IMG/VR virus record: IMGVR_UViG_3300033149_001257
Coordinates: 32,001 to 96,000 of that record
Length of the DNA stretch: 64,000 nucleotides
From: a virus
Direction: 5' to 3' (one strand)
Numbering within the stretch: position 1 is the stretch's first letter; each line of letters begins with the position of its first letter. Below the pieces are notes generated by a model. It saw only the letters and a list, made by a program, of their open reading frames with translations. It ran no database searches and was not told the DNA's origin. Positions 40,325 to 52,057 of this stretch are shown in pieces. The translations under genes were made by a program, and so were the position numbers.

Positions 40325-40570
40325 TTACATTATTTTAATGCTACCGGTTTCAATGGTGGCTTTCTTGAAAATCTTTATCGCTCCTTTTGAAACCAGGTGG
40401 TCTACTTCTTTTTTGTACTTACTGGCAACCTCTACCACACCGTCCTCTATTGAGATAATCTTGCTGCCTATTGAAACGATGTGGCCATCATCTGCCTTCG
40501 CCTTTTTTTTAACCTGAATGAAAAATGTCTCATCCACGTTTGTAGCGTTCTTCTCGGTTTCCGGTGCCAT
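40325..40570 (-). CDS. small hypothetical protein after capsid
   Basis: AAGGAGG RBS. Confidence 0.65.
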   Translation of the reverse strand: MAPETEKNATNVDETFFIQVKKKAKADDGHIVSIGSKIISIEDGVVEVASKYKKEVDHLVSKGAIKIFKKATIETGSIKIM

Positions 40571-40619
40571 TTGCTTATCCTCCTTTTATTTTACCAACAT
40601 CAACATCTACGAGTTAGTA

Positions 40620-40697
40620 TTGGCACTCTCCATGTGGGGATTCTCAGGACTAAGCCTGAAGGCTCTGCCCGAGCCCTGTGTGCTTATTGCCACATTA
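40620..40697 (-). ncRNA. orphan TnpB omegaRNA-like scaffold copy 1
   Basis: TAATGTGGCAATAA..GGCTC-GGGCA-GAGCC-TTCAGG..CCTGAGAATCCCC..GGAGAGTGCCAA; colinear with the tnpB 3' end/right end at 45407-45510. Confidence 0.7.
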
Positions 40698-41762
40698 CGA
40701 ATTAGTGATAACCCGTATTGTGTTTTTCCTATAAGGGGCCGGTATCAGAAGATGTAAACATTTCGTTATCTGCACGGCTTCCTTGTGGTCAGAACCATCA
40801 AATACCTTCATCATTATCTCGTTGAAGTGCATTGTTTTATCCTGACTCGGTTTCTTCGAATATTTACCAACCGGCTGATCTGAGAAACAATACATCCTGT
40901 TTACTTCCAGGGTATTGTCAACTATCCAGGTCACGTTGTATCCAAAGAGGTTGTTTACAACACCATTCTGCATAATAAGCTGCTGCGTTGCTAAAGGAAC
41001 CTCGCTGTTGTATCCACCCGGTGAACCGGCGGCATTATATACAGGCACCCAATCCCATATCTCAGGAAGTGTCGTAGGTGACAGATATATTTTGTTGATC
41101 TTTATACCAAGCCTCAATGAAAGCGCAAACAGAGACTTCATGGTATTTATGGTTATCCCACCCTGCGCAGAAGCGTCAATCGAGTTGGTTGTCGGGAAAG
41201 AAACCACGTCGGAATCCGTATTGAATGTTCCTGTCGGGAACGTACCATATATGGACTTAATGAGTGTCCATATGTCCTGGTTTATCTTACTGGCAACATT
41301 CTTCGATGCCCTCTTGTTGACCCTATCGGAAACCTTGAGCCGACCAGTTACGGCACTCGCTGTAGGATAATCAATGAGGTCGGATGATACATAATATGGC
41401 TTATATGCCGTCACGCCATCTTCGTTAGTAAACGAATCTTTCGGCGCGCCACCGAGCTGAGATATTTCCTTAACCTCGTATTTCTGATTCTTCTCGGTAT
41501 AGACTTCCGGCCACTGGTCATCCTTCAAAGTCTCCGTCTCAAATAACTGTGATGCCAGAATATCAGCATCGATGTCAACATTTATTCTCGTCTGCCTACC
41601 AGCAGCAAACTCTATGGCCGCTGCCGGACTTGAGGCTGATGCCATGAGCATCTTTTCCCTCTCACTGTCGGGCTTCCTTGCGGCATCCAGCGCCTTATCT
41701 TCGGCTTCGATTCTCGCCCTGTTGGCGGGTAACATTAAATCCAGTTTCTCTCTCGCAATCAT
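40695..41762 (-). CDS. major capsid protein (HK97 fold, inferred)
   Basis: 355 aa, strong AAGGAGG RBS, after protease and decoration genes; NLFGYNV motif. Confidence 0.72.
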   Translation of the reverse strand: MIAREKLDLMLPANRARIEAEDKALDAARKPDSEREKMLMASASSPAAAIEFAAGRQTRINVDIDADILASQLFETETLKDDQWPEVYTEKNQKYEVKEISQLGGAPKDSFTNEDGVTAYKPYYVSSDLIDYPTASAVTGRLKVSDRVNKRASKNVASKINQDIWTLIKSIYGTFPTGTFNTDSDVVSFPTTNSIDASAQGGITINTMKSLFALSLRLGIKINKIYLSPTTLPEIWDWVPVYNAAGSPGGYNSEVPLATQQLIMQNGVVNNLFGYNVTWIVDNTLEVNRMYCFSDQPVGKYSKKPSQDKTMHFNEIMMKVFDGSDHKEAVQITKCLHLLIPAPYRKNTIRVITNS

Positions 41763-42361: not shown

Positions 42362-44437
42362 TTAAAACGCACCTTCTACATTAGAAACAATGCCTGTTGA
42401 AGCAACTGCCTGGACTGAGGGTTTGAGTGTTTCTTTGCCCTTAGTATCGGTCGTGCTTGCTGTTGCTTTGGTGGCCGTGGCTTTCAGATCCTCTTTCCAT
42501 GCCACAAACTCTTTTTCGCCAACTTCGTCAAAACCAAACCTGCCCATCTGCTCTTTCTTATACTCAGAAAGCTCAATACCGGAATCCTTTATATCTTTAT
42601 CACGAGCTGCTACTTTCGTGGCTATCTCAGCCTGTTCAGTCCTGTCAGTTTCAACCGCTGCCTTAATTCCCACCTTGACGGCTTCGGCAATCTCGGTCTT
42701 GACTGTTTCGGCATCTTTGTAATCTTTAAACTTATCAGTCATTTCAGTTTCTTTCTCAGAAACCGCGCTTCCAGCAACTTCCTGCATTGCCGATACTATC
42801 GCAGTGGCTGCCAGCGTTACCTGGTCCCCTGTCAAATCAAACGTCTTAAACAAACTTGCTACACTTTCCGGCATCTTCAGTGTCGTTAAGTCCATGTCAT
42901 TTCCTCCTTTTACTAAATTTTTTATTTCATTTATGTGCGAAACCATTTGCCCCATCGTCATGCTACCCGTGTCTATGCTCATTTCGTTAAGCCTTATATC
43001 TTTCATGCTTTTCTTTGCCGATACTTCCAATGTCCTCGATGCTGTACTCCTGAGCTCTTTCTTGCTGATTGATTTAGTCTTTGGCTCTATGTGGTCAGCC
43101 ATGATTAAAGCGCTCCTTAAATGAGCCAAATCAATATGCCCTGCCCCATCTTTATAGGGAAGGTGCCTGGAATCCTTATCCTTGGATGCTCCACTTATAT
43201 AGTCAGGCTCTATCGCTGCAAACGAGCTATCCGGTAGAGCGTCAATAAACGTCTTTGTCCATTTTTCAACAGTGTCTGTTTTTACAAACTCACTCGCTAA
43301 TGAAAAATATCTCGGTGATTCAAACCCACCATCCTTTTCCTCTATTACTGAATATGACGAATATACCCTTATCCCATCATCGTCATTACTGTCCATGTAT
43401 GCACAAAAATCAAAAGTGTCAAACTTTACTTCCTTATCATTTATTTCTATTCTCGTACCACCGGCAGTTTTATCAGTCTCTATCAGTATTCTTGTTTTCT
43501 TCATAGTGTCTCCTCCTGTAGATTTTTGTCCAGGGCCCGGTCTGTCGGCCCTTCTCATCTGTCCCCCACAACTGCTGCATGTCTGGTCTTTGCAGTGACT
43601 CGTAGATGTCGCCTTTTTCCCACATTCAATACATTCACATTCGTATTTGGTAGCTCCTGATTCTACTTTATCTTCAACCTTCTTGCCATCCTTGTTCGTA
43701 AGAGAACCGTCGCTGGCTACGGCGAGATTTAAGGGCTCAAAACCATTTGCGTTGCGATCAGCTGGTGAGAGCGTCAATGCCGCCCCAACAAAGACTACGT
43801 TGCCATTCTCGCCACCAAGTGCAAATTCCATTGGTTTATCTTTGTATGGTAGGCACCGGTCCTCAGAAAGACATTCCTTCATGTCGTCGGTGGCATCTTC
43901 ATAGTTGATAAAATTGCCACCGAGGAAGAAAGCCGAGTCAGAATAAGAAAAAAGGCACTCCATCGATGATTTATACTCGGCCAGCCCTGCATCGTACAAC
44001 TCAAGAATGTCCCTCACCTTCTTTATTCTCTTGTATAGTACGCCATACATGGTTACGGGGACCGCCTCTGCCGGAACAGCCACATCTCCCGCATCTCCCA
44101 TGCTAACATCAATTATATGCCCAAGTATGTCATTGTCGTCTTTTTTGGGATTGTTGGCATTATCCTCAATCCTGTGCTCAAGATTTACCATGTTATGCGG
44201 CACCGTATTAATTGAGTTGGACAACACCTTATATGAAAAACATCTGTTTTTTGAATTTGAAATAGGAAGAGAGTTGCATAAGATGAGCTTGAAAAACTGT
44301 AAAGATGAATTCGGCGTGAGCTTAACTCCCGATGCCAACGAAATCGGTTCTTTTATAAATGATACTTTGGCATCTCCAAGCGCAAATCTTTTTTTGTTTT
44401 CCAATTTTTTTTCTCCATAAAAAAAAGACATTGACAC
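42362..44437 (-). CDS. prohead protease/scaffold fusion (real start possibly TTG ~44404)
   Basis: VNLEH, ILGHI, SSMEC, GAALTLSPAD protease-like motifs; Zn finger; LPDSSFA...RHLPYK domain; helical acidic C-terminus. Confidence 0.72.
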   Translation of the reverse strand: MSMSFFYGEKKLENKKRFALGDAKVSFIKEPISLASGVKLTPNSSLQFFKLILCNSLPISNSKNRCFSYKVLSNSINTVPHNMVNLEHRIEDNANNPKKDDNDILGHIIDVSMGDAGDVAVPAEAVPVTMYGVLYKRIKKVRDILELYDAGLAEYKSSMECLFSYSDSAFFLGGNFINYEDATDDMKECLSEDRCLPYKDKPMEFALGGENGNVVFVGAALTLSPADRNANGFEPLNLAVASDGSLTNKDGKKVEDKVESGATKYECECIECGKKATSTSHCKDQTCSSCGGQMRRADRPGPGQKSTGGDTMKKTRILIETDKTAGGTRIEINDKEVKFDTFDFCAYMDSNDDDGIRVYSSYSVIEEKDGGFESPRYFSLASEFVKTDTVEKWTKTFIDALPDSSFAAIEPDYISGASKDKDSRHLPYKDGAGHIDLAHLRSALIMADHIEPKTKSISKKELRSTASRTLEVSAKKSMKDIRLNEMSIDTGSMTMGQMVSHINEIKNLVKGGNDMDLTTLKMPESVASLFKTFDLTGDQVTLAATAIVSAMQEVAGSAVSEKETEMTDKFKDYKDAETVKTEIAEAVKVGIKAAVETDRTEQAEIATKVAARDKDIKDSGIELSEYKKEQMGRFGFDEVGEKEFVAWKEDLKATATKATASTTDTKGKETLKPSVQAVASTGIVSNVEGAF

Positions 44438-44545
44438 TCTCCTTTAAGGAGATTCTCAGGTTGAGGATACGGAATCCTGAAGGCTCTGCCCGAGCCTTAA
44501 AATGTTTATCGCCACATTATGGTCACAACCTAATTCAAAACCATA
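44431..44545 (-). ncRNA. orphan TnpB omegaRNA-like scaffold copy 2 (tnpB 3' remnant plus right end)
   Basis: reads YGFELGCDHNVAINILRLGQSLQ (cf. TnpB CGLEIGRDHNAAMNILMAGQAIR) then GAGAATCTCC-TTAAA-GGAGAGTGTCAA. Confidence 0.78.
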
Positions 44546-44553
44546 AAGTCAAT

Positions 44554-44605
44554 AAAAAAATGGCAATACACATTATCAGTTAATTTTGATAATACATATT
44601 GCCAC
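44554..44605 (-). terminator. intrinsic terminator
   Basis: ~19-bp stem GTGGCAATATGTATTATCA/TGATAATGTGTATTGCCAT running into a T7 tract. Confidence 0.8.
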
Positions 44606-44668
44606 TTCAAGTACATTGATGAGGGGGTTGCCCTCGGGCTTTTTCTGGTACTTCGCTGTCTGAGGGTA

Positions 44669-44697
44669 ATTATATCAGATATTTATTGTTTTGTCAA
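44669..44697 (-). promoter_or_regulatory. consensus sigma70 promoter
   Basis: TTGACA-17 nt-TATAAT with TG extension. Confidence 0.8.
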
Positions 44698-44847
44698 GCA
44701 TTTTGGAGAATTAGGTGGAAGTTATTTTTCGGATATTTTTTGAATTTCGCTTATTCTCGTCGCTGTTTGCTGTTTATGTTTTTAGTATTTTCAATTATGA
44801 TTTCACTTAATCATTGAATCTGGCTTGTTTGTTTTATTGAAAATCCG

Positions 44848-44887
44848 CCCATTCATCCCCGCGGTTAAAATCGGAGGTTTTCTGGGA
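44848..44887. repeat. degenerate IS200/IS605-type end hairpin
   Basis: CATTCATCCCCGCGGTTAAAATCGGAGGTTTTCTGGG resembles IS605-family subterminal palindromes. Confidence 0.45.
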
Positions 44888-44903
44888 TGTTTCTATAATA
44901 GTT

Positions 44904-45400: not shown

Positions 45401-45448
45401 CAATATTTGACACTCTCCGTGGCTAAAGCCGGGAGATTCTCGGGACTT

Positions 45449-46540
45449 CTATGAAGCCTTCCGAATGGCCTGCCCAGCCATTAAAATATTCATTGCTGCG
45501 TTGTGGTCACGACCTATCTCCAAACCACACCTACACTTATGCACACGAACTGACAATTCTTTTTTGACTATCTTTCCACACTTTGAGCACATCTGGGATG
45601 TGTTTTTGGCAGGAACCTCAATGACTTCTTTTCCAACTTCTTCCGCTTTGAAACGAAGTATATTGAAGAAATTAAACCAAGCAACATCCCTCATAGACCG
45701 ATTGAGCTTTCTGAATGTTTTCCAACTGTGAAGTTTTTCTATACAGATTATGTCGTTCTCTTTAACCAACTTATTAGCAACTTTAAAATGAAAATCTCGT
45801 CTTTGGTTGGCAATCTTTTCGTGAACCTTAGCGACAAGCAACTTTGCCTTTTTTCTTCTACTGGAACCTCTCTTTTTACGAGAAAGCGCTTGTTGGCGCT
45901 CAGTCAGAACACTATCGGCCTCATTAAGAAATCGGGGATTATCTATGGAATTACCATTAGAGTCGGTCAGAAAAGATTCACAGCCCACGTCAATACCGAT
46001 AGTCTTGCCAGTTTTGGACAACGGTTTACCAGGAACATCTTTACAGGAAAAACAAGCAAACCATTTCCCGGCTGGGGTTTTGCGGATAGTTACGGTTTTA
46101 ATTGCGCCCTCGGTAGGCCGAGAAAGTTTCATCTTGAACTTACCAATTTTATTAATAGTAAAGCACCTTCCGTTAAGTTTCCATCCACATTGTTTAAGTG
46201 TGAAAGAATCGTATCTTCCCATCCCCTTGAATCTCGGGAACCCAGCCTTTTCCCCGGACTTAACTCTACGGAAAAAAGATTGGTATGATTTATTGAGACG
46301 CTCAGTCACGTCCTGGAGTGATTCACTTGGCACTTTTTTAAATTCGGGAAAACCTTTTTTCAGGTCGGAAAGCTGATTCGCTTGGTCATACCCGGAAATA
46401 AATTTCCCGTGACATTTCCAAGCATTTATTCTCTGCTCAAGGCAGAGATTATAAAGTATTCTGCAAAGATTAAGAACTTCTTCGGTTTTGGTGAGAGTTT
46501 CTCGATTGGCATATATTCTATATTTAAAAGTCTTTTTCAT
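45449..46540 (-). CDS. tnpB: RNA-guided endonuclease TnpB
   Basis: KTFKYRIY, GFPRFK, IGIDVG (D), ICIEKL (E), TSQMCSKCG..C.CG Zn finger, RDHNAA (D): RuvC triad intact. Confidence 0.96.
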   Translation of the reverse strand: MKKTFKYRIYANRETLTKTEEVLNLCRILYNLCLEQRINAWKCHGKFISGYDQANQLSDLKKGFPEFKKVPSESLQDVTERLNKSYQSFFRRVKSGEKAGFPRFKGMGRYDSFTLKQCGWKLNGRCFTINKIGKFKMKLSRPTEGAIKTVTIRKTPAGKWFACFSCKDVPGKPLSKTGKTIGIDVGCESFLTDSNGNSIDNPRFLNEADSVLTERQQALSRKKRGSSRRKKAKLLVAKVHEKIANQRRDFHFKVANKLVKENDIICIEKLHSWKTFRKLNRSMRDVAWFNFFNILRFKAEEVGKEVIEVPAKNTSQMCSKCGKIVKKELSVRVHKCRCGLEIGRDHNAAMNILMAGQAIRKAS

Positions 46541-46926
46541 TTTTTTGATTGCTCCTCTATATATTTTTTCACAACCTTACTTGATATATTTCCGGCAGTA
46601 CATACAAAATATGAATGAGTCCATAGAGAGGGAATTTTTAGCAGGTGTGGAAATTCTCTACGAAGATAATTTGATGTTCTTCCCTTGAATGCTTTTATTA
46701 TTTTATGGATAGATATTGTGGGGTATGCTGAAACAAAAACATGGAGATGATCTGGTTGAATCTCAAAAGCAATTATGTCTATACTTTTTTCTTTAGCAAC
46801 TTCTCGCATGATTACGCGAAGTCTATTTTTTACTTTTCCTATCAGAACTTTTTTTCTTCTCTTCGGGCACCATATCAGGTGGTAGTTTATGAGATATATT
46901 TGATTGCGTGAATGTTTATATTTCAT
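46537..46926 (-). CDS. tnpA: IS200-family HUH (Y1) transposase
   Basis: YHLIWCPKRR, PDHLHVF (HUH), KGRTS, LWTHSYFV, YIEEQ. Confidence 0.96.
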   Translation of the reverse strand: MKYKHSRNQIYLINYHLIWCPKRRKKVLIGKVKNRLRVIMREVAKEKSIDIIAFEIQPDHLHVFVSAYPTISIHKIIKAFKGRTSNYLRREFPHLLKIPSLWTHSYFVCTAGNISSKVVKKYIEEQSKK

Positions 46927-46935
46927 CTTGTTGAT

Positions 46936-46964
46936 AGTATAGCATATATCAACAATCTTGTCAA
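46936..46964 (-). promoter_or_regulatory. sigma70 promoter for tnpA-tnpB (near-leaderless)
   Basis: TTGACA-17-TATACT, TG extension, 9 nt before ATG; inverted repeat TTGTTGATA-N10-TATCAACAA. Confidence 0.75.
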
Positions 46965-46972
46965 GGAAAAAA

Positions 46973-51982: not shown

Positions 51983-52057
51983 GTGGGGTGTGGACACTTC
52001 CCTCGGTACTAAGGCTTTGCCTGAACCCGGCTCCGATGAGTCTGCACCCCGCTTTTT
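51983..52057 (+). ncRNA. structured leader RNA / attenuator
   Basis: 13-bp stem GTGGGGTGTGGAC/GTCTGCACCCCGC (3 G-U), inner TCGG/CCGA helix, followed by T5. Confidence 0.6.

Follow-up and report, generated by a model that had tools for sequence, protein, structure and literature searches.

A 57-nucleotide omegaRNA-like scaffold behind a putative phage capsid gene, probably a truncated relic of an IS200/IS605 element

Gene-less elements that carry omegaRNAs have already been described (PMC10055086). PATE elements often encode omegaRNAs, and these would need TnpB from other elements in trans (Meers et al. 2023, PMC10055086). The PATE of Geobacillus stearothermophilus (PMC10055086) has no protein gene and keeps both of its ends, including a right end with the scaffold. 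The compatible TnpB comes from another place in the genome, and any use of the RNA would be in trans. In the omegaRNA of ISDra2, the loop region of the 5′ stem is base-paired with positions −5 to −3, and the last stem carries a UUUA loop (PMC10097598). According to the cryo-EM analysis, nothing that precedes the first stem on its 5′ side is required (Nakagawa et al. 2023, PMC10097598). A third related system is formed by the TldR proteins, nuclease-dead TnpB-like repressors in mobile elements, some of them phage-encoded, whose fixed guide serves the host or phage and not the maintenance of the transposon (PMC10705468).

Here, we describe an omegaRNA-like scaffold, hereafter called “copy 1”, that starts at the stop codon of a putative major capsid gene. 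The window, meaning the whole stretch of 64,000 nt that was analysed, is part of a 110,457-bp IMG/VR viral contig, which is linear and ~66% complete by the CheckV estimate. Copy 1 is a further example of a gene-less omegaRNA element, and differs from those described by its missing left end. Like the PATE, it contains no protein gene, retains a right end with the scaffold, and has a compatible TnpB encoded elsewhere in the genome, so that any use would be in trans. In contrast to the PATE, it is a solo right-end stump and not a mobile mini-element. The PATE pattern fits two other elements of the family: copy 2 in the same window, and a ~180-bp element in two further contigs (L057/L058).

The architecture of the present family resembles that of ISDra2, with a 5′ stem loop pairing with the bases ahead of the guide, a middle stem, and a last stem, the 5′ coding part being dispensable in ISDra2. 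The UUUA loop of the ISDra2 last stem is also found in several members. The lengths differ: the ISDra2 scaffold comprises 116 nt and those of the present family 64–90 nt, while copy 1, as read from its sequence, would comprise 57 nt with a damaged last stem. As for TldR, both TnpB proteins encoded here align with the active TnpB catalytic motifs (as judged by eye), unlike the nuclease-dead repressors, and a promoter-overlapping target of the copy 1 flank was not found in the contig.

Identity of the scaffold and its place behind the capsid gene

The minus strand from 40697 to 40620 aligns with 44540 to 44431, as well as with the 3′ end of the 363-aa tnpB gene and the right end at 45407. The composite motif GGGCAGRSC..GAGAATC..GAGAGTG, which covers the loop, the linker and the end, was found at three places in the window, as opposed to none in 100 shuffles; therefore, the scaffold resemblance of copy 1 is real and not a matter of chance. 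In addition, a covariance model (R1) built from 15 family members, with copy 1 left out, matches copy 1 over the full model length (Table 1). Judged by these comparisons, copy 1 is homologous to a TnpB omegaRNA scaffold, which forms the 3′ end of IS200/IS605 elements of the ISDra2/IS608 type. The alignments, the motif scan and the covariance model thus bear out the initial annotation, which had placed an omegaRNA-like scaffold at the capsid stop codon. Its extent of ~78 nt has to be revised: the scaffold proper is the 57-nt core, the 21 nt before it are a coding remnant, and the 20 nt after it are flank only.

Position 40697 is the 5′ limit of the homology, and the leader overlaps the capsid TAA. 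Copy 1 does not overlap an intact tnpB 3′ end; the ~21 nt of coding remnant lie directly behind the capsid ORF. The loss of the tnpB frame was correctly noted, since the remnant amounts to only ~7 codons' worth (NVAI...) and is out of frame with the capsid gene. Rfam searches, both at the gathering threshold and at E≤10, gave no match for any scaffold copy, including the tnpB-linked one in the window. A group I intron search likewise gave no match, and the reading of copy 1 as an IStron was rejected on that account. We also rejected copy 1 as an intrinsic terminator, because the minus strand from 40570 to 40700 contains no terminator-like site; the flank reads TACTAACTCG.

Table 1. Features of the copy 1 locus and of the related elements in the same contig
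Feature	Position	Strand	Evidence and remarks
Downstream gene, 81 aa	40325..40570	−	strong ribosome-binding site AAAGGAGG; co-oriented with capsid gene
Copy 1 flank, would-be guide TACTAACTCGTAGATGTTGA	40600..40619	−	sequence
Copy 1 scaffold core, 57 nt, ends CCAA	40620..40676	−	covariance model R1 match (51.1 bits, E 8.8e-13, full length); family covariation
Copy 1 leader, 21 nt, tnpB C-terminal coding remnant (..NVAI..)	40677..40697	−	alignments
Putative major capsid protein, 355 aa	40695..41762	−	TAA stop at 40697-40695
Copy 2, 464-bp gene-less element	44431..44894	−	left end 44894-44848 after TTAT
Copy 2 scaffold	44497-44431	−	covariance model, 67.7 bits
TnpB-1-linked scaffold core / right end	45407..45481	−	covariance model, 73.5 bits
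tnpB-1, 363 aa	45449..46540	−	domain matches: OrfB_IS605, Cas12f1-like TNB, HTH
tnpA, Y1 transposase, upstream of tnpB-1	46537..46926	−	PF01797, E 9.9e-41; coordinates hand-read
TnpB-2, 366 aa	genome 16671-17771, outside window	−	79% identical to TnpB-1
TnpB-2 scaffold			covariance model, 64.2 bits

All of the genes around copy 1 are carried by the minus strand. The 355-aa ORF preceding it is a putative major capsid protein, as indicated by its gene order behind the terminase, by a 70%-identical homologue (P0002) whose precomputed annotation is PF25209, and by ESM-Atlas look-alikes of the Phage_capsid_4/YonB/major capsid kind (TM 0.63–0.76). Pfam and PHROGs searches with the ORF itself gave no match, and the name “major capsid” given to it earlier is kept here with that qualification. 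The capsid C-terminus is conserved across three homologues, and hence the gene was not truncated by the element. No match to the capsid region was obtained by blastn against a phage collection, and searches of viral and genome contig collections with the capsid protein and its alignment found no relatives. Among metagenome contigs, the relatives comprise only one truncated locus and two distant ones (L007–L009), and a search for the scaffold in these three loci gave no match.

The placement directly past the capsid stop was confirmed: copy 1 lies in the sense orientation, and the minus strand showed no terminator-like site from the capsid gene to the 81-aa gene. Promoter-like sites adjoining copy 1 were not found either. 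Its flank is an ordinary intergenic spacer ahead of the ribosome-binding site of the next gene.

The RNA family and the state of the copy 1 fold

We collected the RNA family by a pattern scan of IMG/VR combined with tblastn. Some of its copies are linked to tnpB (L047/L055, L049, L054/L060, L057, L058, L061 and L062), and others have no tnpB upstream (L048, L052, L053, L056, L057, L058 and L063). The structure was derived from an alignment of 15 members, excluding copy 1. It consists of three stems, A to C, of which A has an invariant GGGCA loop and B and C are joined by a GAAU linker, together with a pseudoknot in which GGCA of the loop pairs with UGYC just ahead of the element end. Across the 15 members, 97.3% of the cells are paired and 10 pairs have changed on both sides, as compared to 34–46% paired in controls with slid partners; the pseudoknot is paired in 100%. 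This covariation within the alignment strongly supports the proposed structure of the scaffold family.

The core pattern is common in bacterial genomes, including Chloroflexota (among them Ktedonobacterales), Deinococcus antarcticus and others, although TnpB was undetected upstream of many of these matches and some of them are chance occurrences. In other phage contigs, the contexts of the orphan scaffolds are mixed (primase, tail, unknown), with no recurrent placement behind capsid genes. Among the orphans found in these contigs, the nearest counterpart of copy 1 is a structurally intact one of 84 bits, situated between two co-oriented phage genes (L056:5688-5774, minus strand). Natural tnpB-linked scaffolds can be as short as 64–67 nt from the first stem to the end (L062:4665-4728, plus strand; L064:16646-16712, minus strand, the latter belonging to TnpB-2), within the 64–90 nt natural to this TnpB family. 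According to the initial annotation, copy 1 would be a very compact natural scaffold. Compactness is a trait of the whole family, not one peculiar to copy 1.

In the 110-kb contig, the covariance model finds exactly four copies: two accompanied by an intact tnpB and two orphans, copies 1 and 2. Copy 1 has the lowest model score among 22 family members, the others scoring 59–91 bits. How much of the fold does it retain? Stem A with its GGGCA loop is intact, and all four pseudoknot pairs (GGCA with UGCC) can form. Stem B is short (UCAGG/CCUGA) and intact; only its distal part is lost, and the tnpB-linked scaffold of L062 is equally short at this place. Stem C, which follows the GAAU linker, is cut to four pairs and lacks the inner helix, as in the TnpB-2 scaffold and copy 2, and contains a C·A mismatch where 13 of the 15 aligned members pair U with A or C with G. 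The earlier statement that all three stems are kept therefore holds for stems A and B, and not fully for stem C.

The canonical fold of copy 1 has an energy of −16.6 kcal/mol versus −20.5 kcal/mol for the minimum free energy (MFE) structure, a deficit of 3.9 kcal/mol in which the pseudoknot is not counted. The alternative fold merges stems A and B. In most family members the canonical fold is the MFE structure, and copy 1 has the weakest canonical fold in the family. The folds of the 78-nt and 98-nt versions of copy 1 are not unusually stable (z = −1.8 and −1.5, respectively). When 201 nt of context are folded, stems A and B form (z = −2.06; frequency of the MFE structure, 0.005), while the 5′ strand of stem C is engaged in a helix that closes beside the downstream Shine-Dalgarno region. 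By model score and by fold, copy 1 is the most eroded member of the family.

The end of copy 1 reads GGAGAGTGCCAA, as opposed to GGAGAGTGTCAA in the other copies. The T-to-C change does turn the G·U pair of the family pseudoknot into a G-C pair, as the initial annotation had pointed out. Its further conclusion, that selection acts on RNA structure rather than on transposition, does not follow: the change is a single transition, the TGCCAA end is also present in the tnpB-linked element of L061 and is thus no proof of selection at the RNA level, and in the 201-nt context fold the variant C also lies within a local hairpin with a downstream GUUGAUGUUGG repeat. The same change makes the cleavage tetranucleotide CCAA instead of TCAA. 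Since the tnpB-linked L061 shares the variant, CCAA alone does not disqualify copy 1 as a right end of the family. In IS608, the right-end TCAA is reportedly read by the GAAT 5′ of the hairpin, and CCAA would accordingly weaken TnpA cleavage; for copy 1 this effect is irrelevant, because there is no left end.

Copy 2, left ends and the TnpB genes

In the left-end motif of the family, a hairpin whose loop is of the UUUA type is flanked by CCGAGAAAACC and GGATGAAT. The motif stands 1.3–1.5 kb upstream of the scaffold in the tnpB-linked elements of L057 and L062, and precedes the orphans in L052, L053 and L057 by 45–63 nt. This short distance identifies the latter three orphans as complete, gene-less, PATE-like mini-elements of ~180 bp. 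One ~180-bp element occurs at L057:382-587 (minus strand) and L058:10056-10140 (plus strand), with an 85-nt scaffold and a promoter-like TTGATT-17-TAAAAT; its left end is a perfect 51-nt copy of that of the tnpB element 7 kb off in the same contig. Upstream of the two structurally intact orphans in L056 and L048, the left-end motif was not found.

In the phage contig, the left-end motif occurs once, at 44848–44894, where it belongs to copy 2; the contig scan found none upstream of copy 1. Copy 2 is therefore a complete element, as the sole left-end motif of the contig stands at its start. It contains a promoter that matches the consensus at 12 of 12 positions with an extended −10 (44697–44669), a hairpin of 20 pairs with a T-run (44606–44559), and a tnpB C-terminal remnant. 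The right end of copy 2 abuts a 691-aa gene. Its stem C contains the Shine-Dalgarno sequence of this gene, and the final A of copy 2 (44431) doubles as the first base of the probable ATG. Copy 2 thereby seems to supply the promoter, the ribosome-binding site and the start codon to the head-gene operon.

Copies 1 and 2 are mutual nearest relatives, with 44 of 46 identical positions in the core blocks, 16 of 23 in the leader, and a common GTGGC variant. The differences between them affect 7 of 24 positions in the leader and loops and 2 of 49 structural positions (Fisher p = 0.005). An exact search of viral contigs for the 19-mer common to both orphans gave only two unrelated chance matches. A further match to the orphans was noticed at 52011–52027 (plus strand), in the leader past a strong rightward promoter (51880), where 14 of 17 positions agree with the reverse complement of the stem A region. 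With 0.04 matches expected, and with a 17-mer picked post hoc from many windows, this match is borderline and probably due to chance.

The 363-aa TnpB-1 of the window had been proposed as the partner of copy 1. We found a closer candidate in TnpB-2 outside the window, whose own scaffold is much closer to both orphans than the TnpB-1 scaffold is. TnpB-2 matches the ISDra2 TnpB structures over nearly the whole length (E 4e-47), and the RuvC catalytic D/E/D motifs are apparently conserved in both TnpBs, as read by eye from the alignments. The Y1 transposase gene tnpA adjoins only tnpB-1. The spacer upstream of tnpA (46927–46972, minus strand) is only ~50 nt long. It contains a promoter resembling the consensus and an inverted repeat of 9 bp without mismatches (TTGTTGATA..TATCAACAA); a left-end motif of the family type was not seen there. 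The TnpB-2 element (genome 16646–17771, minus strand; L002:1431-2556) has a 67-nt scaffold, no tnpA and no recognisable left-end hairpin. Its homology to the 81%-identical elements in L010 and L011 begins only ~70 nt ahead of the ATG, where a consensus promoter lies. The TnpB-2 element may be an immobilised copy.

If the copy 1 RNA were loaded into TnpB, its guide would be TACTAACTCGTAGATG... A second match to the copy 1 flank accompanied by a TAM was not found in the 110-kb contig. When all four flanks were searched for second targets, the only result was a 12-nt identity, ACTCGTAGATGT, at 43598–43609 (plus strand), inside a terminator-like hairpin of the opposite strand. We rejected it as a target of copy 1, as it has no TAM and contains TAM-proximal mismatches, and judged it to be a chance match. 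The stretch CTCGTAGA, common to the copy 1 and TnpB-2 flanks, was considered as a trace of a co-duplicated flank and set aside as too short to support this; it is probably also due to chance. The left-end borders carry TTAT or TTAC, and the end of the capsid gene (..TCGTAA) is unlike either.

Origin of copy 1 and its possible use

How did a scaffold without its element come to stand at the capsid stop codon? We propose that copy 1 is a 5′-truncated solo right end left by a deletion, a passively transcribed and tolerated relic without a function of its own, and estimate the probability of this explanation at roughly 0.6. A copy-2-like element, or a tnpB-bearing ancestor of copies 1 and 2, would once have been located downstream of the capsid gene. 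A deletion would then have fused the capsid stop codon with a point inside the tnpB 3′ end, so that the left end and the promoter were lost along with nearly the whole of tnpB. TAAT is present on both junction partners, which suggests that microhomology may have been involved. Copy 1 cannot transpose, because the left end is absent, the tetranucleotide is CCAA and not TCAA, and the TnpA-type hairpin is eroded. Its transcription is probably passive, just read-through with the capsid operon, as promoter-like and terminator-like sites are absent alongside. The RNA could still form the first stem with the pseudoknot, the second stem and a weakened last stem. TnpB-2 or TnpB-1 might bind this RNA, and the “guide” would then be simply the next 16–20 nt of spacer.

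Several observations speak against a mere relic. The pattern of differences between copies 1 and 2 fits purifying selection on the fold, although this selection may predate the truncation. Stems B and C have lost distal parts only and retain the basal pairs, a pattern reminiscent of engineered trimmed omegaRNAs (PMC10097598). Moreover, the pseudoknot of copy 1 is strengthened, not weakened. Copy 1 is sense-oriented in what is probably a highly expressed operon, two TnpB genes whose catalytic motifs appear to be intact reside in the same contig, and other phage contigs hold intact orphans for which no left-end motif was found (L056, L048).

Some of these observations would equally suit a working trans guide RNA, a reading that we regard as unlikely. 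TnpB would cut the scaffold from the capsid transcript, and TnpB-2 or TnpB-1 would then cleave DNA matching TACTAACTCG..., for example in co-infecting relatives without the insertion, with a homing or exclusion advantage as the effect. TnpB is reported to process the tnpB mRNA into omegaRNA (PMC10278001). The full core, equivalent to ISDra2 stems 1–4 plus the pseudoknot, is present in copy 1, its positions are conserved relative to the leader, and intact TnpB genes occur in the contig. However, copy 1 is the weakest family member by score and fold, with a mismatch in stem C, and lacks its own promoter. Since the left end is gone, the initial junction of TAM and target cannot be rebuilt: the scaffold itself now stands upstream of the flank, and the capsid end does not resemble the TTAT/TTAC of the left-end borders. 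In addition, a search of the contig found no target for the flank.

Alternatively, copy 1 could have been co-opted as a cis element of the late mRNA, either by stabilising the capsid message at its 3′ end or providing a processing site for it, or by tuning the translation of the next gene, with TnpB being optional. Its position between the capsid stop and the next ribosome-binding site is consistent with such a role, as is the 201-nt fold, with stems A and B present and the 5′ strand of stem C paired beside the Shine-Dalgarno region. We nevertheless hold this to be quite improbable, since copy 1 has neither a U-run nor a terminator-like call, the MFE structure of the context fold has such a low frequency, and the shorter folds are not unusually stable.

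There is little likelihood that the 57-nt scaffold, loaded into TnpB-2, and copy 2 constitute a two-guide set that brackets the head module and brings about an RNA-guided “marker exclusion” of the capsid module. Were this so, relatives without the insertions would suffer cuts on either side of the module, this phage would provide the template for their repair, and copy 1 would be among the shortest natural TnpB scaffolds in use. Finally, a composite IS200/IS605 transposon, in which the left end at 44894 and the right end at 40620 mobilise a 4.3-kb head module through tnpA, is barely credible: the left end (44894–44848) and the right ends (44431 and 40620) are co-oriented and bracket the 691-aa, 153-aa and capsid genes, but copy 1 ends in CCAA instead of TCAA with a TnpA-type hairpin of only four pairs including a mismatch, the intact right end at 44431 intervenes and would be used first, and no compositional break was found around the head module.

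As a truncated relic, copy 1 represents IS200/IS605 debris in a phage genome, a transposon end of which only an intergenic stump is left, placed precisely at a stop codon. The 64–90-nt scaffolds of these ISDra2-like TnpBs (363–366 aa) are of modest practical interest for the design of minimal omegaRNAs. Copy 1 shows that trimming can go as far as 57 nt with the family model still matching, which makes it a cheap test case for a minimal omegaRNA. Were copy 1 shown to be loaded into TnpB, this would provide evidence that additional guides for transposon nucleases are retained by phages.
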